Shown: one piece after another, positions 10,038 through 52,257 of the stretch
Layout: every line of letters begins with the position of its first letter
How positions within the stretch are numbered: the first letter of the stretch is position 1
Assembly: GCA_017938205.1 (NCBI GenBank)
Contig: JAGBCA010000004.1
Coordinates: 434 to 64,433 of the forward strand
Reading direction: 5' to 3'
Length of the DNA stretch: 64,000 nucleotides
Source: Clostridia bacterium
GTDB taxonomy: Bacteria > Bacillota > Clostridia > Oscillospirales > CAG-272
Made by a program: the position numbers and the translations under genes
The notes under the pieces: model-generated
The model's input: only the letters and a program-made list of their open reading frames with translations
Told to the model about the DNA's origin: nothing
Databases searched by the model: none

Positions 10038-10997
10038 TTAACCCTTGCGATTTTTATACCAGTTTTTCGCCGCTGTCAGCGTTTTTACGCAACTGTCGTG
10101 CACGTGCATCCAATCGGGATCGATTCGCTCCCAGCTTGTTTGCATCATGCCTAAGAGATGGTCGCCGCTAAGATTTTCAACGCAATATTTCGTCAGACCT
10201 TCGAAGTTATCCACCTTTGACCAAACACTTCCGGTTGGAACCTGATCATAGCCAAGAGCATCCATCTTTTTGAATGCATCCAGACTGCCGCCCCAATAGT
10301 CACCAAGCGCATCACGGTCAAAAATATTGGTATAATACCAGTTACATTGAACGATGGATCTTGGCATCTTTGAGAAAAATGCATCCGGCTGCGACCAGGA
10401 CATATCTGCCCAGATCCATGCACGCGCATCGTTCTTTTCAACGCAATCCACAAGATAATACAGATCATGCCACCAAAGATCCCCCTGACGGATAGCGGCA
10501 AAATACAAACCCTTCTGATTCTGAGCAGTTTCTTCGTCCATACCAAGATGGAAATGCTTAGGCTTAAAGAGGGAACAGACCTCATCGATCAGATCCTTGC
10601 ACACCTGATAATACGTCGGCGTAGAAAGCATACGGGAATAATCCTTGAGCCATATATCATGTGCTGCGGAAAAATTCAATTTAGGAATCAGCTCAAAGCC
10701 CATCCCCTCCAAACGTTTGATCTCCGCGCGCATCATATCATGATCCCATGAATTGCGTACGTTGATCTCGGGATGAGATTCATATTTGAGGGCCTCTGCA
10801 ACATCAATTATCAACGTATCTATACCTGCGGTTCGAAGATCTTCAGTGTGCTTATTCCAGCAATCTCTATCGAAGAGGAAAACAGGGGATGCCTCAGGTG
10901 TAGACCGATGTTCACGTCCCTTAGAATTTCCTTCTTCGCGCCAAAGATTGGAACCAAGATGCAATAGCTCTATCCATCTGAATTTATTGTTTCCCAT
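10038..10997 (-). CDS. GH20-like TIM-barrel glycoside hydrolase domain protein (catalytic domain only)
   Basis: The 319-aa ORF has segments GFELIPKLN and HFHLGMDEE. These are colinear with GIEVVPCIQTLGH and RIHIGMDEA of the two long GH20-like ORFs in this window. Confidence 0.5.
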   Translation of the reverse strand: MGNNKFRWIELLHLGSNLWREEGNSKGREHRSTPEASPVFLFDRDCWNKHTEDLRTAGIDTLIIDVAEALKYESHPEINVRNSWDHDMMRAEIKRLEGMGFELIPKLNFSAAHDIWLKDYSRMLSTPTYYQVCKDLIDEVCSLFKPKHFHLGMDEETAQNQKGLYFAAIRQGDLWWHDLYYLVDCVEKNDARAWIWADMSWSQPDAFFSKMPRSIVQCNWYYTNIFDRDALGDYWGGSLDAFKKMDALGYDQVPTGSVWSKVDNFEGLTKYCVENLSGDHLLGMMQTSWERIDPDWMHVHDSCVKTLTAAKNWYKNRKG

Positions 10998-11162
10998 AAA
11001 AGTCTCCGTTTCTTATATAATGACATTTTCATTGTAACACACATTGTTTTTTTATTCAAGGTGAATTTTCGGATTAACCTTTTTTGGGAATAAAACAACA
11101 TTTTTTGGATAAAAAAAGGCTTTGCAACAAAAACAAAGCCTTTTTTTATAAAGAATAGGGAA

Positions 11163-11582
11163 TTACGCAAGCACGCTAAGAGTTTTCTCGACCCAAGCCT
11201 TAACGGTTGCCATTTCCTCTGCAGAAACATTTTTAAGGAACTTGAAGGGAAGACCTCCGTTGATATAAAGAATATCCTCGATCACGTTCGCATTATTCGT
11301 TTTTGCCATTTCAACAATTTTAGCAGCATTCTCAGGTGTACCGTCAATTATGAAAGCGATATTTGCAGTTACGCTCTTTTTTAAGGAACGCATAAAGCGG
11401 CAAAAGCTATCGGGCATAGAAGGCTTCGCAGAAGCCACGATCACGATCAGTCTTTCACCATCACAGGGATAAGCGGGCATAATAACGTCCGTTGCCTTAT
11501 CAGCCTGGATCAGCTTCGTAACCTCATCTGCAATAGCAAGAAGCTTTCCCTTGCTTGTCTGGGTCAATACACGCATTCTCAT
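11163..11582 (-). CDS. Hypothetical protein (possibly a flavodoxin-like fold)
   Basis: A 139-aa ORF with an RBS (GGAGGA) and an alternating beta/alpha-like pattern. I recognise no diagnostic motif. Confidence 0.45.
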   Translation of the reverse strand: MRMRVLTQTSKGKLLAIADEVTKLIQADKATDVIMPAYPCDGERLIVIVASAKPSMPDSFCRFMRSLKKSVTANIAFIIDGTPENAAKIVEMAKTNNANVIEDILYINGGLPFKFLKNVSAEEMATVKAWVEKTLSVLA

Positions 11583-27881: not shown

Positions 27882-28733
27882 TCAGCATGCGATCAGTAAG
27901 ATCGAACCGATCGCAAGTGCAACGCCGATCTTCTTACGTACCGAAAGCTTTTCTTTCACTAAAATTCTTGCAAAAACCGCGGAAGAAACGATGGCACCGC
28001 CGTTAAGCACAGAGAAAACGATCACACTTGGAAGCACGCCGGAAAGATAAAGATTGAGTATATTCGCTCCGGCCATACAAAGGCCAATAATGATAGCGGT
28101 TTGATAAAATCCTTTTTTGGGCTTCGGCCGTTTTTTGGGCATGATGATCAGCGTAGCAAGAACCATGATCGCAAATGAGATTACAAGAAAACCGTACATT
28201 TGATTTTTTTGCTCAGACATACGGAAGACCTTTTGGATCACAGCAACACTACCCGCAGCAAGCATAGCAGAAACTGCATACAGCAACCATTTGAGACTTA
28301 CACCACCGTTCTTTACTTTAACACCAACGGCAAAGGCAACCAGCAAAATCGCTATACCTATATATTGGCGTAGGATCGGATATTCACCGTAAGCAAAGGC
28401 ACTGAATATGATCGGAACAAGGAATCCGGAGGAATAGAACATAGACGTGAGCGCAACGTCTCCATGCTTCGTAGCCTGCATCAAAAGGATCTGACTTGAA
28501 AGAGTGAAGAACGCATATAAAACGGCCAATATGAGCGTCTCCCAACGAAGAGGAAATATCTCACGCCAACCAAGCACAAGAAAAATAATACCGCCCGTCA
28601 AAAACAAAAACAAGTTAAACGTATAGATGTTATTCTTCTCATCCAGGCAATCATTCGATTTTTTGGAAAAAACACTTTTTAATCCTGCGCACAATACACT
28701 GCACAGGAGCAATACGTATTTCATTTTTTTCAC
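27882..28733 (-). CDS. EamA/DMT-family transporter
   Basis: A 283-aa ORF with about 10 predicted TM segments in two repeated halves. Confidence 0.65.
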   Translation of the reverse strand: MKKMKYVLLLCSVLCAGLKSVFSKKSNDCLDEKNNIYTFNLFLFLTGGIIFLVLGWREIFPLRWETLILAVLYAFFTLSSQILLMQATKHGDVALTSMFYSSGFLVPIIFSAFAYGEYPILRQYIGIAILLVAFAVGVKVKNGGVSLKWLLYAVSAMLAAGSVAVIQKVFRMSEQKNQMYGFLVISFAIMVLATLIIMPKKRPKPKKGFYQTAIIIGLCMAGANILNLYLSGVLPSVIVFSVLNGGAIVSSAVFARILVKEKLSVRKKIGVALAIGSILLIAC

Positions 28734-46280: not shown

Positions 46281-46325
46281 ATAAAATAACTCCTTTGGGT
46301 TTATCCTTGCTTATAAGCAAAAAAA

Positions 46326-46599
46326 TGGTGCGGGCGACAGGACTTGATTCTCGCGCGAACTACGCGCTGCGGTCATTCGCGGCTCTGACAGTCCACCGGA
46401 CTGTCATTCAGTTCCGCTCCTACTTCAAGTCCGTCGTACAACCTACACTTGCTTACATAAAATGGTGCGGGCGACAGGACTTGACTCTCGCGCGAACTAC
46501 GCGCTGCGGTCATTCGCGGCTCTGACAGTCCACTGGACTGTCATTCAGTTCCGCTCCTACTTCAAGTCCGTCGTATAACCCACACTTGCTTACATAAAA
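46326..46599 (-). repeat. Two tandem 137-bp units, each ending with a copy of the last 22 nt of tRNA-Leu (including CCA)
   Basis: The units are 46326-46462 and 46463-46599 and differ at 4 positions. TGGTGCGGGCGACAGGACTTGA recurs at 46326, 46463 and 46600, an exact 137-bp period. Each unit has strong internal self-complementarity. Confidence 0.9.
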
Positions 46600-46683
46600 T
46601 GGTGCGGGCGACAGGACTTGAACCTGCACATCGGAGATACCAGATCCTAAGTCTGGCGCGTCTGCCAGTTCCGCCACGCCCGC
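46600..46683 (-). tRNA. tRNA-Leu (anticodon UAG), CCA encoded
   Basis: The reverse complement is GCGGGCGTGGCGGAACTGGCAGACGCGCCAGACTTAGGATCTGGTATCTCCGATGTGCAGGTTCAAGTCCTGTCGCCCGCACCA. It folds as a class II cloverleaf with a long variable arm and anticodon loop CTTAGGA. Confidence 0.9.
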
Positions 46684-46724: not shown

Positions 46725-46776
46725 GCCCTTACGGTAATCTTTTTGCGATAACGCAAGAAAAAGTTAAAAAAAGGGG

Positions 46777-46805
46777 TTGACTTTCTCTGAAAGTTCTGTT
46801 ATAAT
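46777..46805 (+). promoter_or_regulatory. Promoter of tRNA-Ser
   Basis: TTGACT (46777-46782), a 17-nt spacer, then TATAAT (46800-46805), 13 nt before the tRNA 5' end. Confidence 0.65.
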
Positions 46806-46818
46806 ATAGAAGTCCGTT

Positions 46819-46909
46819 GGAGAGATGGCCGAGTTGGTCTAAGGCGCACGACTGGAAATCGTGTAAACCCTAACCGGTTTCATGGGTTCGAATCCCATTC
46901 TCTCCGCCA
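46819..46909 (+). tRNA. tRNA-Ser (anticodon GGA), CCA encoded
   Basis: GGAGAGATGGCCGAGTTGGTCTAAGGCGCACGACTGGAAATCGTG...GGGTTCGAATCCCATTCTCTCCGCCA. It is a class II tRNA with a long variable arm and anticodon loop CTGGAAA. Confidence 0.9.
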
Positions 46910-46970
46910 TAATATAAGCACCCCATTATGGGGTGCTTATATTATTTTATGGCTGATAGAATGAGGATGA
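46908..46970 (+). repeat. Left copy of a roughly 63-nt direct repeat bracketing the AT-rich cassette
   Basis: CATAATATAAGCACCCCATTATGGGGTGCTTATATTATTTTATGGCTGATAGAATGAGGATGA recurs at 48416-48478. I estimate about 80 percent identity by eye. Confidence 0.75.
46913..46941 (+). terminator. Intrinsic terminator after tRNA-Ser
   Basis: TATAAGCACCCC-ATTAT-GGGGTGCTTATA followed by TTATTTT. Confidence 0.75.
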
Positions 46971-47095
46971 GAAGCCATCGTCGCGCAGCGACTTGGGTTC
47001 GCATACCGCGCGAAGAGTGCGTCAAGCTTACTTGTAAGCGGCGAGCGACGGTATATTCGAGAGATTTTCTCGAGAACAACCATTCTCTCCACTAT

Positions 47096-47134
47096 AAAAA
47101 CGAACTTTTGTCTACCAGATAAAAGTTCGTTTTT
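47096..47134 (+). terminator. Strong intrinsic terminator
   Basis: AAAAACGAACTTTT-GTCTACCAGAT-AAAAGTTCGTTTTT followed by TCGTATTTTT. Confidence 0.8.
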
Positions 47135-47267
47135 TCGTATTTTTGAGCTTATATCTCACTAATAAAACATCGGTGTTCTTTTTATTACTCTTGGCTCAAA
47201 TAAAAAACGCCAAAAAACTTGCAACAGAAGAAATTCAAACACCCCTCAAAAAACTATTAAAAAACTA

Positions 47268-47296
47268 TTGACAACTTATAGTTGATATGTTATAAT
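47268..47296 (+). promoter_or_regulatory. Consensus sigma-A promoter of the two-gene cassette
   Basis: TTGACA (47268-47273), a 17-nt spacer, then TATAAT (47291-47296). It is preceded by a tandem AAAAACTATT AAAAAACTATT. Confidence 0.7.
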
Positions 47297-47323
47297 TGCA
47301 TTAAGAAAAGGAGGATGAATATT

Positions 47324-47662
47324 ATGGAGTACGAAAAAATAATTCTTGATTTATTGATGCGAGTTAAAGAGTTGGAGGAAAAAGTAGAACAACTTTCAAA
47401 GGAAAAGAAGAACAATTCAAAAAAGCAACCAGGAATAGCTGAAATCAGAGAATACATTATAGGGCTAAAACAGAAGGCAGCAGAAGATGGACTTCCCTAT
47501 ATTGTCTTAAAAGCCAATGACATACACAAAGCTATGGAATTAAAAAGCCGTATGCCTGCCGTTTGCAGTGCTATGAAACAATGTATGAATATGGGAGATA
47601 TTGTTTTGCATAAAACTGCAAGCGGATTTTCCTCAACATTCGAAATCCAATATACAATTTAA
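47324..47662 (+). CDS. Hypothetical 112-aa protein (N-terminal coiled coil plus a C-terminal domain of unknown function)
   Basis: An ATG lies 9 nt after AGGAGG. The frame stays open in AT-rich DNA. I recognise no family. Confidence 0.65.
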   Translation: MEYEKIILDLLMRVKELEEKVEQLSKEKKNNSKKQPGIAEIREYIIGLKQKAAEDGLPYIVLKANDIHKAMELKSRMPAVCSAMKQCMNMGDIVLHKTASGFSSTFEIQYTI

Positions 47663-47698
47663 TGGAAATACAGAGCTATACTGATTCGTTTTTGGTGA

Positions 47699-48364
47699 TT
47701 GAAAGTGCACGGACACAAATATTCTTCAAAAAAAGAGAAGTGGATTAGTAATGGTCACGGCGGCCATGTATTAAAACGGACATATTCGTATAACCACACT
47801 AACGATGTATTTACGATTTTCCTGCTGTGTTTTTTATTTGCTGCGCCCTTTTTGATTGCACGCAACCTAAAAGAGCGGAGGCGATTTTCAAATCACAAAT
47901 CTTTTATTAAACGGTTAGAGGAAAGCCAACAGCGCAGCTTGGAGAAACTACAGCAAACAAGGCAAAGCCTTTGGAATACTATAAAAAACAAACGCAAAGG
48001 CGAAAGTGATAATCATTGGATCAGAAGACTAAAAAGATATGGTTTTACAACAGATGGAGTGCATATAAAAACAGGAATAGAATATCAACTCAAAACAGAA
48101 ACGGAGAAATCTAAAATGAATGTTTATATCAAGGACAAATTAAAGAAGTTAGAAGGCGAAACTTTTTACACTGTAACAGGCAAACCATATACATATGAAT
48201 TCGTGGGCGAAAACATAATAAAGCCGAATAGAGCAAATTATAGGATTCATTTATCGAATTTTGAAAAAGCAATAAAAATAAATCCAACTGAATTACGTCA
48301 AATAAGAGAGGTTAGAGGCCCTTCTTATGTATTTGGAATAATAACGGATAAAAGATTTTGTTAA
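47699..48364 (+). CDS. Hypothetical 221-aa protein with one TM segment, a basic coiled region and a C-terminal domain of about 80 aa
   Basis: A 666-nt frame is open in AT-rich DNA, which is unlikely by chance. It has a TTG start with a weak RBS. An alternative internal start at ATG 48116, behind GGAG, would give only the 82-aa C-terminal domain. Confidence 0.5.
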   Translation: MKVHGHKYSSKKEKWISNGHGGHVLKRTYSYNHTNDVFTIFLLCFLFAAPFLIARNLKERRRFSNHKSFIKRLEESQQRSLEKLQQTRQSLWNTIKNKRKGESDNHWIRRLKRYGFTTDGVHIKTGIEYQLKTETEKSKMNVYIKDKLKKLEGETFYTVTGKPYTYEFVGENIIKPNRANYRIHLSNFEKAIKINPTELRQIREVRGPSYVFGIITDKRFC

Positions 48365-48415
48365 ATGTAGCGGAACGGTATTTGGATCATAATACATCTT
48401 TTTGCTACTCTTTCG

Positions 48416-48478
48416 CATAATATTAGCACTCCATTTTTTGGGTGCTTATATTACTTTACGGTGAAAAATAAGGATGGA
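48416..48478 (+). repeat. Right copy of the roughly 63-nt direct repeat
   Basis: CATAATATTAGCACTCCATTTTTTGGGTGCTTATATTACTTTACGGTGAAAAATAAGGATGGA matches 46908-46970. Confidence 0.75.
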
Positions 48479-48489
48479 ATAACAAAAAT

Positions 48490-48521
48490 GAGGCAGAGAT
48501 CCAAGCTCGGATCTCTGCCTC
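48490..48521 (-). terminator. Intrinsic terminator of the EF-G paralog gene
   Basis: GAGGCAGAGATCC-AAGCTC-GGATCTCTGCCTC has U-rich tracts on both sides. Confidence 0.8.
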
Positions 48522-48542
48522 AAAAATATTTTTCAGGTTGTT

Positions 48543-50612
48543 TTAAGCATCCTTTTTCGCTTCGGCAATGATTTTATCCGCAAGGTTTGCAGGAACCTCG
48601 TCGTAGCGAATAAACTCAAAATCGAATCTGCCGCGGCCTTGCGTTGCGGCGCGAAGTGCGATCACGTAGTCGGTCATTTCCGCGAAGGGTGCCTCCGCAA
48701 TAACAACCTGCGTATCAGAGCCATCCTCTGCCGGCTCAATTCCCATTACCTTGCCACGGCGCTTATTGAGATCGCCCATAATGTCGCCAACATAGCTATC
48801 GGGAATGTAAACCTTCAATGCGCCAACGGGCTCAAGAAGCACGGGAGAAGCCTTGGGAAGGCCCTCACGGTATGCAATAGCTGCTGCGAGCTTGAAGGAG
48901 ATTTCATTCGAGTCTACGTCGTGATACGAGCCATCATACAGATTTGCCGCAAGATGAACCATGGGATAACCCGCCAGCACGCCCTTCTGCATGCACTCCT
49001 GAAGACCGGACTCAACCGCCGGGAAAAAGTTCTTCGGAACAGCACCACCAAATACGCTCTCGGTAAAGGTCAAGCCCTCTGCCTCACCGGGCGAAAACTT
49101 GATCTTTACGTGACCGTACTGACCCGAACCGCCGGACTGCTTCTTATGCTTACCCTCTACCTCAACGGACTTCTTGATCGTCTCGCGATATGCAAGCTTC
49201 GGCTTCGTGAGATTTACGGATGCACCAAAGCGCGCCTTCAGCTTGGAAACGATAATATCCAGATGAATATCACCAAGACCGGAAACTGTCAACTGCTTCG
49301 TCTCGGGATTGTTTTCATATTTCAGTGTCAGATCCTCTTCAAGCAGACGCGCCATACCGCCGGAGATCTTATCCTCATCCCCCTTTGCAGCAGGTGTGAT
49401 CGCCATTGTCATATAAGGCTTCGGATAAGAGATCGGTGCATAAGAAACATTGGCCGCGCCCGTCGTCAGCGTATCATTCGTATTCGCGCTGACAAGCTTT
49501 GCGGTAACACCAATATCGCCGCAGGCAAAAGCATCTGCCTCAACCTGCTTTTTACCGCGAAGCATAAATATCTTGTTGAATTTCTCGTTTGTACCGGTAC
49601 GAACGTTTCGAAGTGACATATCCTTGCGAAGCTCACCGTTCATAACCTTGAAGTAAGACATCTTTCCTACGAAGGGGTCTGCAACGGTCTTGAATACGAA
49701 AACAGAGGTATCTGCAGCTGCGGGATCGATCGCGATATCAGATCCGTCTGCCAGCTTCTCTACCTTTCTTGCAAGAGGTCTCGGGAAGGACTCCGCAATG
49801 GTATCAAGGAAGGTTTTAATGCCCCAGTTCTTGATCGCCGCGCCACAGAATACGGGAACGATATCACCCGTAATAATCCCCTGGTGGATCGCTTCAAGCG
49901 CTTCCTCGCGGGAAATGGGCTGCTCGTTGAAGAATTTATCCATCAGCTCATCGCTCGTCTGCGCGATCGCCTCAAGAAGAATGTTATGATATTCATCGCA
50001 AACATCCTTGAATTTATCGGAGATCGAGCTACGAACGTACTCACCCGTTGCCTTCTCGAAAGTATAAACGCACATTTCAACAAGGTTAGCAAAGCCGATA
50101 ACCGTATCACCGTCAATGATGGGGATCTGAATTGGGCAAACCGTCAATCCGTATTTTTCGCGGATCGCACCGAACACCTTATAAAAACGAGCCTCGGGAT
50201 CATCAAAGCGGTTGATGAAAAAGGCCTTTGGGATACCTGCATCGTTTGCCATTTTCCAAGCAAGCTCCGTTCCAACCTCAATACCCGCCTTACCGTCAAC
50301 TACGATAATAGCAGCATCTGCCGCGCGAACACACTGACGTGCCTCACCTTCAAAATCAAAGAAGCCGGGCGTGTCAAGAATATTGATCTTTGTACCATTC
50401 CAAAGCATCGGGGCCATTGCGGCAGAAACCGAATAGCCTCTCTTGATCTCTTCGGGATCGTAGTCACAAACAGTGTTACCGTCTGCAATCGTTCCGGGAC
50501 GATCCGTCAGACGAGAAATATATAGCATGGACTCCGCGAGCGTCGTCTTTCCACCCCCGCTATGTCCGAGGAGTGCAACGTTTCTAATGCTTTTTGTGAA
50601 AACTGTTTCCAT
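48543..50612 (-). CDS. Elongation factor G family GTPase (paralog outside the str operon)
   Basis: The 689-aa ORF has the five-domain EF-G layout, with G1 GHSGGGKTT, G3 DTPG and G4 NRFD. It is not flanked by rpsL, rpsG or tuf. Confidence 0.8.
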   Translation of the reverse strand: METVFTKSIRNVALLGHSGGGKTTLAESMLYISRLTDRPGTIADGNTVCDYDPEEIKRGYSVSAAMAPMLWNGTKINILDTPGFFDFEGEARQCVRAADAAIIVVDGKAGIEVGTELAWKMANDAGIPKAFFINRFDDPEARFYKVFGAIREKYGLTVCPIQIPIIDGDTVIGFANLVEMCVYTFEKATGEYVRSSISDKFKDVCDEYHNILLEAIAQTSDELMDKFFNEQPISREEALEAIHQGIITGDIVPVFCGAAIKNWGIKTFLDTIAESFPRPLARKVEKLADGSDIAIDPAAADTSVFVFKTVADPFVGKMSYFKVMNGELRKDMSLRNVRTGTNEKFNKIFMLRGKKQVEADAFACGDIGVTAKLVSANTNDTLTTGAANVSYAPISYPKPYMTMAITPAAKGDEDKISGGMARLLEEDLTLKYENNPETKQLTVSGLGDIHLDIIVSKLKARFGASVNLTKPKLAYRETIKKSVEVEGKHKKQSGGSGQYGHVKIKFSPGEAEGLTFTESVFGGAVPKNFFPAVESGLQECMQKGVLAGYPMVHLAANLYDGSYHDVDSNEISFKLAAAIAYREGLPKASPVLLEPVGALKVYIPDSYVGDIMGDLNKRRGKVMGIEPAEDGSDTQVVIAEAPFAEMTDYVIALRAATQGRGRFDFEFIRYDEVPANLADKIIAEAKKDA

Positions 50613-50853
50613 TTTGTTTGGTTCTCCTGTATGCTATGAATTGATGTCCAGCACCTCTGCCAATACATCTTATTTTAATTATACATCATAAAAAACACAA
50701 TTTCAAGAACTTTTTTTGAGTTAAACCAACATAGAGCGTAGAATTTTCCTTCTTATTTTTGTTCACATTACACAATTTTTCTAAAAAAAGAAAACGAGAC
50801 GGTGCTTGAAATGGTCAAGCGCTCCGTCTCATGAATTAAATACTTATTTATGC

Positions 50854-52257
50854 TTAATTTTGACTAAGTCCGTCCGCATCATCGGCGGCTTGCTTACGAA
50901 GCTTCATATTCGCCAAGGCCTGATAGATATTTTCGATTCCGATCAAAGCAATTCCCTCTGGCACGCGCAAAGCCGGCGTAATATTTTTCTTAGGAAGGAC
51001 GATTTTCGTGAATCCGAGACGCACCGCCTCCTTTACACGATACTCAATATGCGATACGGCACGAACCTCACCGGCAAGACCGATCTCACCGAAGGCGATC
51101 AGATCATCTGCGATCACGCGGTCGGTAATACCGCTGATCAACGCCATTGCAATTGAAAGATCTGCACTCGGCTCATCCAAACGAATGCCACCGGCAACGT
51201 TGAGATATACGTCGTTCTCATAAAAACGGAGTCCCATTCTTTTCTCAAGCACCGCCATTAAAAGACACATACGGTTATAATCAAAGCCGTCTGCCGTTCG
51301 CTTTCCGACGGGATAGGTCGTTTTCGTTACCAAGGCCTGGATTTCGGAAATGATCGGGCGGCTTCCCTGCATCACGCATCCGGCGCAGGAGCCGCTGGTA
51401 TTTTTCGGCCGCTCCGCCATTACCACCTCGCTGGGATTTGGTATTTCCTCAAGTCCGCGTTCACCCATTTGAAAAACGCCGATCTCATTGGTTGACCCAA
51501 AACGGTTTTTGATGGCTCGGATGATACGGTAGGAATTGGTTCGCTCACCTTCAAAATACAAAACGGCATCCACCATGTGCTCGAGAATTTTAGGACCGGA
51601 GATTCCGCCTTCCTTATTCACGTGGCCAACGAGAAAAACCGCCGCGCCACTGTTTTTTCCATAATGAATAAGAGAAAGCGCGCTTTCCCGCACCTGCGTT
51701 ATACTTCCCGGCGCTGAGGAAAAGCGCTCGATCGTAAGTGTTTGCACCGAGTCAATGATCAAGACCTGCGGCTGAATCCGATCACATTCGCCAAGAATTG
51801 CCTCGACGTCCGTTTCCGTGAGAAGAAAAATATTCTCTCCTTTGATCCCAAGTCGTTCAGCACGAAGCTTGAGCTGACCGGTTGATTCCTCACCGGATAC
51901 GTACAAAACACGCCGATCTCTTGAAAGCTCATCACATATCTGCAAAAGAAGAGTTGATTTTCCAATGCCGGGCTCGCCCGAAAGCAAAACCGCACTTCGC
52001 TCAACGAGACCGCCCCCCAACACACGGTCCAGCTCAGCCATTCCTGTTTTTGCACGTAAATAATCGGGCTGCTCAAGCTCCGAGAACGGAACTGCCTTGT
52101 TTTTCGGCGTTGCACGCACGGAGACTTTTGTTTTTTCCTCCTGCATCTGCTCCTCGTCATAGGAATCCCATGAGCCGCAATCCGGACATTTTCCGATCCA
52201 ACGAATACTCGTTGCGCCGCATTCACGGCAAACAAACATGATCTTTGGTGTTTTCAT
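50854..52257 (-). CDS. radA: DNA repair protein RadA/Sms
   Basis: It has an N-terminal zinc finger CRECG...CPDCGSW, Walker A GEPGIGKST, KNRFG and a Lon-like C-terminal domain. Confidence 0.93.
   Translation of the reverse strand: MKTPKIMFVCRECGATSIRWIGKCPDCGSWDSYDEEQMQEEKTKVSVRATPKNKAVPFSELEQPDYLRAKTGMAELDRVLGGGLVERSAVLLSGEPGIGKSTLLLQICDELSRDRRVLYVSGEESTGQLKLRAERLGIKGENIFLLTETDVEAILGECDRIQPQVLIIDSVQTLTIERFSSAPGSITQVRESALSLIHYGKNSGAAVFLVGHVNKEGGISGPKILEHMVDAVLYFEGERTNSYRIIRAIKNRFGSTNEIGVFQMGERGLEEIPNPSEVVMAERPKNTSGSCAGCVMQGSRPIISEIQALVTKTTYPVGKRTADGFDYNRMCLLMAVLEKRMGLRFYENDVYLNVAGGIRLDEPSADLSIAMALISGITDRVIADDLIAFGEIGLAGEVRAVSHIEYRVKEAVRLGFTKIVLPKKNITPALRVPEGIALIGIENIYQALANMKLRKQAADDADGLSQN

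Follow-up and report, generated by a model that had tools for sequence, protein, structure and literature searches.

A small cassette without a recombinase behind tRNA genes of gut Clostridia and the predicted role of its two-gene cargo

A short AT-rich segment with two small open reading frames (ORFs), ORF1 and ORF2, lies behind an intact tRNA-Ser(GGA) gene in a 64-kb stretch of contig JAGBCA010000004.1 from a Clostridia bacterium, with a copy of a 63-nt repeat on either side. The question it raises is whether the segment is a mobile unit, where such a unit begins and ends, and what its genes may do for the cell that carries them. The window analysed here is the whole 64-kb stretch, with the element under study near positions 46819-48522. 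A previous sequence-only reading had taken the segment for a foreign cassette of defence or toxin-antitoxin type that is bracketed by the repeats. Comparison with other loci makes it very probable that positions 47095-48417 are a discrete, horizontally mobile cassette with its own promoter and no recombinase, which we call a T2-type tRNA-trailer cassette, and it gives the repeats a different origin. The finding is real and goes beyond a plain pair of hypothetical genes, while the role of the cargo is a prediction. For the locus as a whole we lean modestly towards an autoregulated conflict module that travels on a tRNA-trailer cassette mobilised in trans.

The segment stands out from its surroundings in composition, as the sequence-only reading had estimated by eye. 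The G+C content of 47095-48418 is 0.334 compared to a window mean of 0.450 (standard deviation of 0.036 for windows of the same size), the lowest of any same-size window in the 64 kb, and the G+C content at third codon positions (GC3) is 0.31-0.32 in ORF1 and ORF2 versus 0.49-0.54 in the flanking ychF and EF-G paralog genes. Other low-G+C patches (0.35-0.38) are found at about 10600-11500, about 28300-28650, 50500-50950 and about 61200, none of them as low as the cassette. The immediate neighbours of the cassette in the window are housekeeping genes, and no integrase or transposase is present among the ORFs of the segment. Neither ORF1 nor ORF2 occurs in any of the 80 related genomes that carry the neighbouring EF-G paralog.

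The boundaries could be set by comparison of cassette copies. Those at the loci L095-L103 have only two stretches in common with the window, 47093-47143 at 95-98% nucleotide identity and 47249-48412 at 86%, and their flanks are unrelated. The resulting junctions are 47094/47095 and 48417/48418, with an ambiguity of 3-4 nt because TAA occurs at both. The left end is a hairpin, T2 (AAAAACGAACTTTTGTCTACCAGATAAAAGTTCGTTTTTT), that is unique in the window and whose core, ACTTTTGTCTACCAGATRAAAGT, served as our sequence handle. T2 directly abuts the CCA end of tRNA-Ser(GCT) in L097 and L098, of tRNA-Met(CAT) in L103 and of tRNA-Val in L109, and it abuts a Ser-like tRNA 3' end in L101 and a pseudo-tRNA-Met 3' end in L095. 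The corresponding sequence in the window is a pseudo-tRNA-Ser 3' end, CCATTCTCTCCACTA, which a repeat search found at 89% over 18 nt; the earlier list of features was incomplete here, missing both this third tRNA-Ser 3'-end-like copy at 47080-47094 and the strong hairpin at 47096-47134. The outer stem of T2 shows compensatory changes between loci (CGAAC/GTTCG, CGCAC/GTGCG, GTCAC/GTGAC and GGAAC/GTTCC). T2 was considered as a lox- or dif-like crossover site and rejected as such: it does not include the element junctions, and the right end has no half-site.

On the right side, every copy finishes in a conserved ...CTTTTTaCTGCTCTTTGCCA, which in the window reads ...CTTTTTGCTACTCTTTCGCA and ends at 48417, and a different terminator hairpin follows in each context. 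In the window this hairpin is the right repeat copy, and the cassette ends in ...CTCTTTCGCA immediately ahead of the displaced terminator. A 16-nt motif, TCTTTTTNNTACTCTT, is present in exactly two copies in the 64 kb (47177 and 48397; 0.02 expected), both of them near the cassette ends and inside the cassette. Behind T2, a leader of about 200 nt is conserved across loci. In L095-L113 this leader ends in an inverted tRNA-3'-end-like sequence (e.g., GGTGCGGACAGGGGGATTTGAAC), with a decayed equivalent at 47213-47243 of the window, and it holds a second terminator-like hairpin whose stem covaries (GCTGCGG/CCGCAGC versus GAGTCGGAG/CTCCGACTC) and which has been lost from the window copy.

Placement beside a tRNA gene, part of the sequence-only reading, recurs at other loci, where the cassette is found behind at least six different tRNA genes. 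With the divergent ORF1/ORF2 cassettes that have no recognisable T2 counted in, such elements lie downstream of the tRNAs Ser(GGA), Ser(GCT), Met(CAT), Gln(TTG), Val(CAC), Tyr(GTA) and Leu(GAG); the divergent copies include one about 300 nt behind tRNA-Gln in L007 and one behind tRNA-Tyr in L126, after the native terminator. Scanning metagenomes with the T2 core located it directly after tRNA-Gln, tRNA-Trp, tRNA-Val, tRNA-Ser(GGA) and another tRNA 3' end, and also at a few sites that are not beside a tRNA. ORF1 proteins identical in sequence are found with at least four different right flanks.

A natural pair of empty and filled sites is given by L126 and L125. The tRNA-Tyr gene of L126 has its native terminator behind it. 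In L125, a T2-like hairpin, 1.35 kb of cargo (a 23S_rRNA_IVP-family protein and another ORF) and the end ...TTTCTTCGCA, of the form ...TTCGCA, stand in this order between the same tRNA-Tyr and the same native terminator, with CAACA at both junctions. Elements with the same ends also carry other cargo: a WYL regulator with a GmrSD-type enzyme (L107 and L112), a type II methyltransferase with a putative endonuclease and a helix-turn-helix protein (L108), a DUF4177 protein (L111 and L113), and ORF1 with a divergent ORF2 (L109). The right ends of L108, L109 and L111 have the same tandem motif and finish in ...CGCA, ...GGCA or ...GACA, followed by a terminator.

Two features expected of islands integrated at tRNA genes, a position 3' of the tRNA gene and variable presence among relatives, are thus found here. 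As for attachment (att) sites, the junctions have only 3-5 bp in common (TAA or CAACA), and the right end, which is identical behind different tRNAs, does no more than resemble CCA (...TTCGCA or ...TTGCCA). We found no integrase in the cassette and no sign of its derivation from an integrase-bearing relative.

The cassettes enter precisely at the point where the CCA end of a tRNA gene, or a tRNA-like pseudo end, meets the terminator, and in the window the pseudo-tRNA-Ser 3' end was the target. T2 becomes the terminator of the upstream tRNA, and the displaced native terminator comes to lie behind the cargo. Mobilisation would occur in trans, most likely by a site-specific recombinase encoded elsewhere, with the 16-nt direct motifs and the CCA-like terminus as candidate recognition elements, and an excised circle would join ...TTCGCA to TAAAAACGAAC. 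If this model is true, it shows that very small cargo without a recombinase can spread between tRNA loci and leave the tRNAs undamaged, each unit supplying its own terminator while the native one is reused. Variable islets rich in defence genes could then also be located in uncultured gut Firmicutes by three simple sequence handles, namely T2, the 16-nt motif and the terminus that resembles CCA.

The two genes of the cassette have the layout of an operon, being small, adjacent and co-oriented, with one promoter, a gap of 42 nt between the ORFs and one downstream hairpin. The textbook promoter of the sequence-only reading (TTGACA-17-TATAAT, 47268-47296) matches at 12/12 positions and has a TG extension. 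The tandem motif that had been noticed upstream of it is AAAACTATT, present twice at 47250-47258 and 47261-47269, and an inverted repeat, AACTAT-N9-ATAGTT, spans 47263-47283. In nine of the 10 distinct contexts of ORF1-type genes that we inspected, the upstream AAAACTATT repeats over the -35 box are kept, and the inverted repeat is kept in most of these contexts. Four winged-helix subtypes pair with four different tandem repeats beside the -35 box, the other three being AATTAAAG in the DUF7662 loci, AATACATA in L134 and TAGAAT in L122, at the same place in each case. Because the repeats change with the winged-helix subtype, we infer that ORF1 probably binds its own promoter.

The AlphaFold2 (AF2) model of ORF1, with a predicted local distance difference test (pLDDT) score of 91.4, has a long N-terminal helix (residues 2-29) and a winged-helix domain (residues 38-111), which matches the N-terminal coiled coil and compact C-terminal domain read from the sequence. 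The secondary structure of the domain follows the winged-helix order H-S-H-H-S-S (H38-54, E59-63, H64-70, H77-86, E93-96 and E107-111). Foldseek matches in the PDB are weak, the best having an E value of 0.026, and most of the top ones are winged-helix proteins (Stn1, Rpa2, ArsR, CodY and CtsR). A ratio of nonsynonymous to synonymous substitutions (dN/dS) of 0.14 relative to cassette copies elsewhere indicates purifying selection. Homologs of ORF1 form 81 clusters at 90% identity, and the named ones are from uncultured Clostridia or Oscillospiraceae. In L001 and L116, the gene upstream of the ORF2 homolog encodes an ORF1-type N-terminal helix joined to a Pfam DUF7662 domain. Alignment of ORF1 with DUF7662 proteins by hhalign gave a probability of 98% and an E value of 2e-13 over 80 columns, while a Pfam scan of ORF1 gave no DUF7662 match at an E value of ≤1 and the gathering threshold was not reached; by these profile comparisons, ORF1 is a distant relative of DUF7662 and not a member by Pfam's rule.

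The genes downstream of ORF1 vary. They encode a full ORF2, a 155-aa protein of a membrane helix and the C-terminal domain of ORF2, CTD85 (L125), a 98-aa protein with the C-terminal domain only (L007) or a version split into 63 aa and 81 aa (L132), and in L119 an ORF1 relative precedes a 197-aa protein of no assigned family, beside a ThsB-like TIR protein and an integrase. In another locus (L122, 7001-9142), an ORF1-like gene (49% identity) is followed by two tiny ORFs and a 436-aa SIR2 protein that matches the PADLOC candidate PDC-S25 (E value of 1e-93, positions 94-515 of the 517-position profile), in a context that resembles an integrative and conjugative element (ICE), with ParA, RelB/ParE and an integrase. 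From its modelled fold and the promoter repeats, ORF1 is probably a dimeric autoregulator of its own operon, a coiled-coil and winged-helix protein that would bind the AAAACTATT repeats over the -35 box.

For ORF2, GTG 47705 is the most likely start, which gives 219 aa, the length of the full-length homologs, and not TTG 47699 (221 aa) as previously read. The remainder of the earlier description stands: one transmembrane helix is predicted, followed by basic helices and a C-terminal domain of about 80 aa. The protein consists of a conserved basic N-terminal motif, a hydrophobic helix (residues 34-52), long basic helices, a YGFTxDGxHIKTG hairpin and CTD85 (residues 140-218, approximately). The helix is the only strongly hydrophobic segment (mean Kyte-Doolittle hydropathy of 2.34) and is flanked by six K/R residues on its C-terminal side versus two on its N-terminal side, a bias that predicts a cytoplasmic C terminus; the net charge of the protein is +23. 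The C-terminal domain is alpha/beta and modelled at a pLDDT of >90. The dN/dS value relative to cassette copies elsewhere is 0.13-0.18, which again indicates purifying selection. The homologs make up 23 clusters at 90% identity, those with names again being from uncultured Clostridia or Oscillospiraceae. The two genes co-occur in other contexts, a check that the sequence-only reading had proposed.

CTD85 (window positions 48116-48361) has no Pfam model. Its consensus is W..I...EGE.F.T.TG.PFTY...R......S.FEKA...P........VRG.SYV.AIL.D.RI., and a profile search among 1.84 billion representative proteins (clusters at 50% identity) gave 332 proteins at an E value of ≤0.001. Nearly all of them match CTD85 alone, and most are stand-alone proteins of 80-95 aa. 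In other cases the domain is fused to a TIR domain of the CAP12/Pycsar type (P0165; PADLOC TIR effector, E value of 2e-49), HNH (P0194), a protein kinase (P0141), DUF6884 (P0183) or DUF7662 (P0155). In P0139, an ORF1-like helix, DUF7662 and CTD85 are found in a single chain, and this fusion links the two genes of the cassette. The way in which transmembrane, TIR and HNH parts take turns beside CTD85 points to the membrane helix as the effector part. ORF2 would then be a basic protein with a single-helix membrane anchor and a sensor-like CTD85 in the cytoplasm.

Given these architectures, the most likely role of the cargo would be in conflict, as an abortive-infection, defence or toxin-antitoxin module in which ORF1 would regulate or partner a membrane-acting ORF2; we put this role for the cargo at somewhat less than an even chance. 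As for defence islands, ORF1 relatives and CTD85 are tied to TIR, SIR2 and HNH effectors through gene neighbourhood or fusion, sister cassettes carry WYL with GmrSD or a type II methyltransferase pair, and the neighbours in the window are housekeeping genes. If the cargo is a conflict system, it adds a compact two-gene architecture, and the uncharacterised domain found in other fusions with TIR, HNH and kinase effectors gains a name and a role that can be tested. A wider proposal, tentative and in our judgement rather doubtful, is that these elements form an undescribed class of recombinase-less cassettes among gut Clostridia that recognise any tRNA or tRNA-like CCA/terminator junction with a 3-5 bp overlap, keep the tRNA functional by a terminator swap and carry conflict cargo, ORF1 and ORF2 being a new defence system with CTD85 as its sensor.

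Several observations weigh against a conflict module on a trans-mobilised cassette. With regard to the cargo, ORF1 and ORF2 have no match above noise in Pfam, PADLOC, PHROGs or NCBIfam. With the system-specific hidden Markov models of PADLOC-DB v2.0.0, ORF1 gave no match and ORF2 only a weak one to Csx1 (E value of 0.0012, 16.5 bits) in its coiled region, and PDB sequence profiles gave only coiled-coil noise for both proteins. Foldseek gave no significant match for ORF2 in PDB or BFVD, its small C-terminal domain probably being hidden because the full-length model is extended, and the fusion and neighbourhood evidence comes from a handful of inspected examples. With regard to mobility, no recombinase lies between T2 and the right end in about 15 inspected elements, and no autonomous partner element or integrase-bearing relative was found. 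Some homologs have no tRNA nearby (L001, L122 and L132). About 80 nt of the leader and one of two right-end repeats are missing from the window copy, which may for this reason no longer be mobile.

The pair might instead be an addiction module of the toxin-antitoxin type that stabilises the cassette or its neighbourhood, with ORF1 as DNA-binding antitoxin and ORF2 as membrane toxin, which we regard as unlikely. In its favour, the cargo is predicted to be a mobile, autoregulated two-gene operon that begins with a small DNA-binding protein and occurs in some genomes only, and the single chain of ORF1-like and CTD85 parts in P0139 suggests direct interaction. No homology to known toxin or antitoxin families was found in Pfam, NCBIfam and PDB sequence searches, however, and ORF1 also precedes partners unrelated to ORF2 (the 197-aa protein, and the small ORFs with SIR2). 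A generic regulator fits this variety of partners better than a dedicated antitoxin. The distinction from a conflict module is also not sharp, since many toxin-antitoxin systems also act as defences and the two explanations overlap largely.

More improbable still is an ordinary accessory regulatory pair, e.g., a transcription factor with a membrane-tethered partner that senses an environmental cue. The absence of an enzymatic or known effector domain from ORF1 and ORF2 would be as expected, and stand-alone CTD85 genes of distant taxa lie in unremarkable neighbourhoods. This explanation does not sit well with sister mobile cassettes that carry GmrSD or a methyltransferase pair, with CTD85 fused to TIR and HNH effectors, or with the patchy distribution and low G+C content.

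The repeats on either side of the segment are the reason for another explanation, in which they are the attL and attR of an islet that integrated site-specifically in the terminator region of tRNA-Ser and duplicated the terminator. They are real, highly significant and on both sides of the AT-rich segment: an alignment of 46908-46970 to 48416-48478 has 53 identical positions in 65 columns (81.5%, close to the 80% estimated by eye), and its local score is 38, whereas 200 shuffled versions of the target region score 11.6 ± 1.5 and 18 at most. At its core, the repeat has a hairpin with perfect 18-bp arms in the left copy (46909-46945) and weakened arms in the right copy. Because this core is palindromic, the direct orientation of the repeats is set by a tail of about 25 nt, which in the left copy is a decayed, inverted tRNA-Ser 3'-end-like sequence. 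The hairpin, T1, follows tRNA-Ser(GGA) in the relatives L016, L065, L020, L024, L034, L038 and L057, and many relatives thus have it as the native terminator of this tRNA gene.

What decides the matter is that several cassette-free relatives (L057, L038, L017, L024 and L040) already have tRNA-Ser, T1 with its tail, a structured, non-coding module of 110-250 nt (the X module), a pseudo-tRNA 3' end and a second T1 with its tail, in this order. When 47095-48418 is taken out, the window aligns colinearly with L057, L038 and L017, and the right copy, T1', is placed with respect to the pseudo 3' end just as it is in these three loci. The repeats therefore predate the cassette and stem from a separate, older duplication behind tRNA-Ser. 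Moreover, homology among the cassette copies stops at 47093 and 48412-48417 and not at the repeats, and other copies are flanked by different tRNAs and terminators without any such repeat. That the repeats are the att sites of the cassette is consequently very improbable, and the bracketing of the cassette by them, as previously read, has to be given up. By the alignment with these relatives, the junction of the pseudo 3' end and T1' mimics a tRNA/terminator junction and is where the cassette entered; the pseudo end belongs to the older duplication, and for this reason two tRNA-Ser terminator copies flank the cassette. The general lesson is that direct repeats beside a tRNA are not necessarily the att sites of the gene cargo they enclose.

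The empty site that had been predicted, with tRNA-Ser, one repeat copy and the terminator of the EF-G paralog, was not found, and the region is rearranged among relatives. In the closest relative, L015, whose EF-G paralog is 95% identical in amino-acid sequence, tRNA-Ser is found some 100 nt past the EF-G gene, in inverted orientation compared to the window. The inversion covers tRNA-Ser(GGA) and its promoter (46758-46925 versus 8172-8339 of L015), whereas the EF-G paralog, tRNA-Leu and ychF are still colinear, and the neighbourhood of tRNA-Ser is a rearrangement breakpoint among other relatives as well. The X module, if counted to the end of the pseudo-tRNA sequence (46946-47094, and likewise in L017, L024, L034, L038, L040, L044 and L057), opens with an inverted tRNA-Ser-3'-like sequence and closes with a direct pseudo-tRNA 3' end, after which a second copy of the tRNA terminator follows in L017, L024, L038, L040 and L057. 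The module may be a tRNA-derived repeat, a small RNA or a mini-element.

A prophage remnant, with ORF1 as repressor and ORF2 as a membrane protein for superinfection exclusion, can be set aside as extremely unlikely. A small regulator with a membrane protein does generally resemble some prophage immunity or exclusion pairs, but relatives are absent from IMG/VR, INPHARED phages and BFVD structures, and no phage genes occur in any inspected context. T2, ORF1 and ORF2 were likewise absent from IMG/VR (pattern scans) and from INPHARED phages and PLSDB plasmids (tblastn), and by these searches the cassette is not phage- or plasmid-borne. It is just as hard to believe that ORF1 and ORF2 themselves insert the cassette as a novel recombinase or targeting pair that reads tRNA ends, for although the cassette has no other genes, its ends are conserved, ORF1 has a DNA-binding fold and ORF2 is very basic, the same T2, leader and right end occur with quite different cargo and no ORF1/ORF2 (L107/L112, L108, L111 and L125), no catalytic motif, nuclease or recombinase fold was detected, and the likely ORF1-binding repeats are at the promoter and not at the ends.

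Apart from the cassette, an Rfam scan of the locus gave nothing beyond the two tRNAs listed in Table 1. The tRNA-Leu(TAG) gene is followed by two tandem 137-nt units (46322-46595, minus strand), each ending in the last 22-26 nt of tRNA-Leu and both without a counterpart in L015. A core of about 90 nt from these units recurs behind tRNA-Ser(GGA) in L016 and L065, where a tRNA-Ser 3' end closes it and the tRNA-Ser terminator then appears a second time. The 137-nt unit has the appearance of a small non-coding element that makes a second copy of the 3' end of any tRNA it follows.

Table 1. Features of the tRNA-Ser(GGA) locus and the cassette, in window coordinates
Feature	Position	Strand	Details or basis
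tRNA-Leu(TAG)	46600-46683	minus	
Promoter of tRNA-Ser(GGA) itself	46777-46805		Promoter scan, 11/12
tRNA-Ser(GGA), intact	46819-46909	+	ARAGORN; Rfam tRNA, 61.8 bits
Left repeat copy: native tRNA-Ser terminator T1 and tail	46908-46970	+	Hairpin 46909-46945
X module, non-coding, with GGGTTCGCATACC box; older than the cassette	46946-47079	+	Alignment to L057, L038, L017
Pseudo-tRNA-Ser 3' end (CCATTCTCTCCACTA vs CCATTCTCTCCGCCA); insertion target of the cassette	47080-47094	+	Junction comparison
Inserted cassette, about 1323 nt	47095-48417	+	Comparison with L095-L103 copies
T2 hairpin, cassette left end	47096-47134	+	18-bp stem; bidirectional terminator-like
16-nt end motif TCTTTTTNNTACTCTT, left copy, in shortened leader	47177-47192	+	
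Promoter and operator-like repeats	47250-47296	+	-35 at 47268-47273, -10 at 47291-47296
ORF1, 112 aa, putative autoregulator	47324-47662	+	Ribosome-binding site GGAGG 47310-47314
ORF2, 219 aa, GTG start	47705-48364	+	
Cassette right end: second 16-nt motif copy, then TTCGCA	48397-48417	+	tRNA-CCA-like terminus
Right repeat copy T1' and tail, now downstream of ORF2	48416-48478	+	Weak hairpin 48425-48446
Terminator of convergent EF-G paralog gene, outside the cassette	48489-48522	-	
EF-G paralog gene	48543-50612	minus	

Among known protein families, the closest to ORF1 is that of the DUF7662 proteins, which resemble it in the N-terminal helix and in the C-terminal domain over its first half. They replace ORF1 upstream of ORF2 homologs (L001 and L116) and are fused to CTD85 in P0139 and P0155. 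A literature search found no paper in the library searched that mentions this family, which has no known function.

The likeness of the cargo to membrane-effector systems and to type II toxin-antitoxin operons is one of architecture only. Like the transmembrane effectors of CBASS, Pycsar and retrons, ORF2 combines a membrane helix with a small sensor-like domain, and the joining of CTD85 to TIR or HNH in paralogous proteins is the typical pattern of "effector swapping." Unlike those systems, the cassette has no cyclase, reverse transcriptase or other signal generator and no PADLOC model match. With type II toxin-antitoxin operons it shares two small co-transcribed genes, the DNA-binding protein first, promoter repeats and mobility, but there is no family homology and ORF1 has several unrelated downstream partners.

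As for mobility, an IS200/IS605-type element or palindrome-associated transposable element (PATE) was rejected, with a hairpin at the left end only, direct 16-nt repeats at the right end and no transposase (tnp) genes. Integron cassettes resemble the T2 cassettes in being small and recombinase-less, in having a structured, hairpin-forming site and insertion in trans at a defined site, and in their variable cargo, often of defence or toxin-antitoxin genes. T2 differs from their sites in being without attC features or R/L boxes and looks on reading like an intrinsic terminator; in addition, no integrase or attI is nearby, the cassette has a strong promoter of its own, and its target is a tRNA CCA/terminator junction. 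Identity as an integron cassette was rejected after a search for attC, an integron integrase and attI, none of which was found.

Tycheposons of Prochlorococcus have their own tyrosine or serine recombinase, often replication genes, and a size of at least 10 kb (bioRxiv 10.1101/2020.12.28.424599). The islands that they shape are like the cassette loci in that cargo, including defence genes, gathers beside tRNA genes, partial tRNA copies mark older integrations, and newcomers push older ones outward. They are unlike the present elements in that the cassette has no recombinase and comes from an unrelated taxon, gut Clostridia.

The mobility of the cassette is most like that of cis-mobilisable elements (CIMEs) or of accretion at tRNA 3' ends. 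CIMEs are decayed ICEs or integrative and mobilisable elements (IMEs) with long attL/attR repeats that include the tRNA 3' end, each tied to one tRNA (PMC5704250). The cassette is like both in lying at a tRNA 3' end with no integration or transfer genes and in tandem stacking at the same tRNA (L125 versus L126, L011, and the X module with the cassette in the window), and like a CIME it would presumably depend on a recombinase acting in trans. Unlike CIMEs, it is only about 1.3 kb, it has conserved ends of its own (T2, the leader, the 16-nt motif and the ...GCCA/CGCA terminus), it has 3-5 bp in common with its target, and it is found at at least seven or eight tRNA species. The cassette thus differs from the known tRNA elements in four ways, by its tiny size, its own ends, the few bases shared with the target and the many tRNAs at which it is found.

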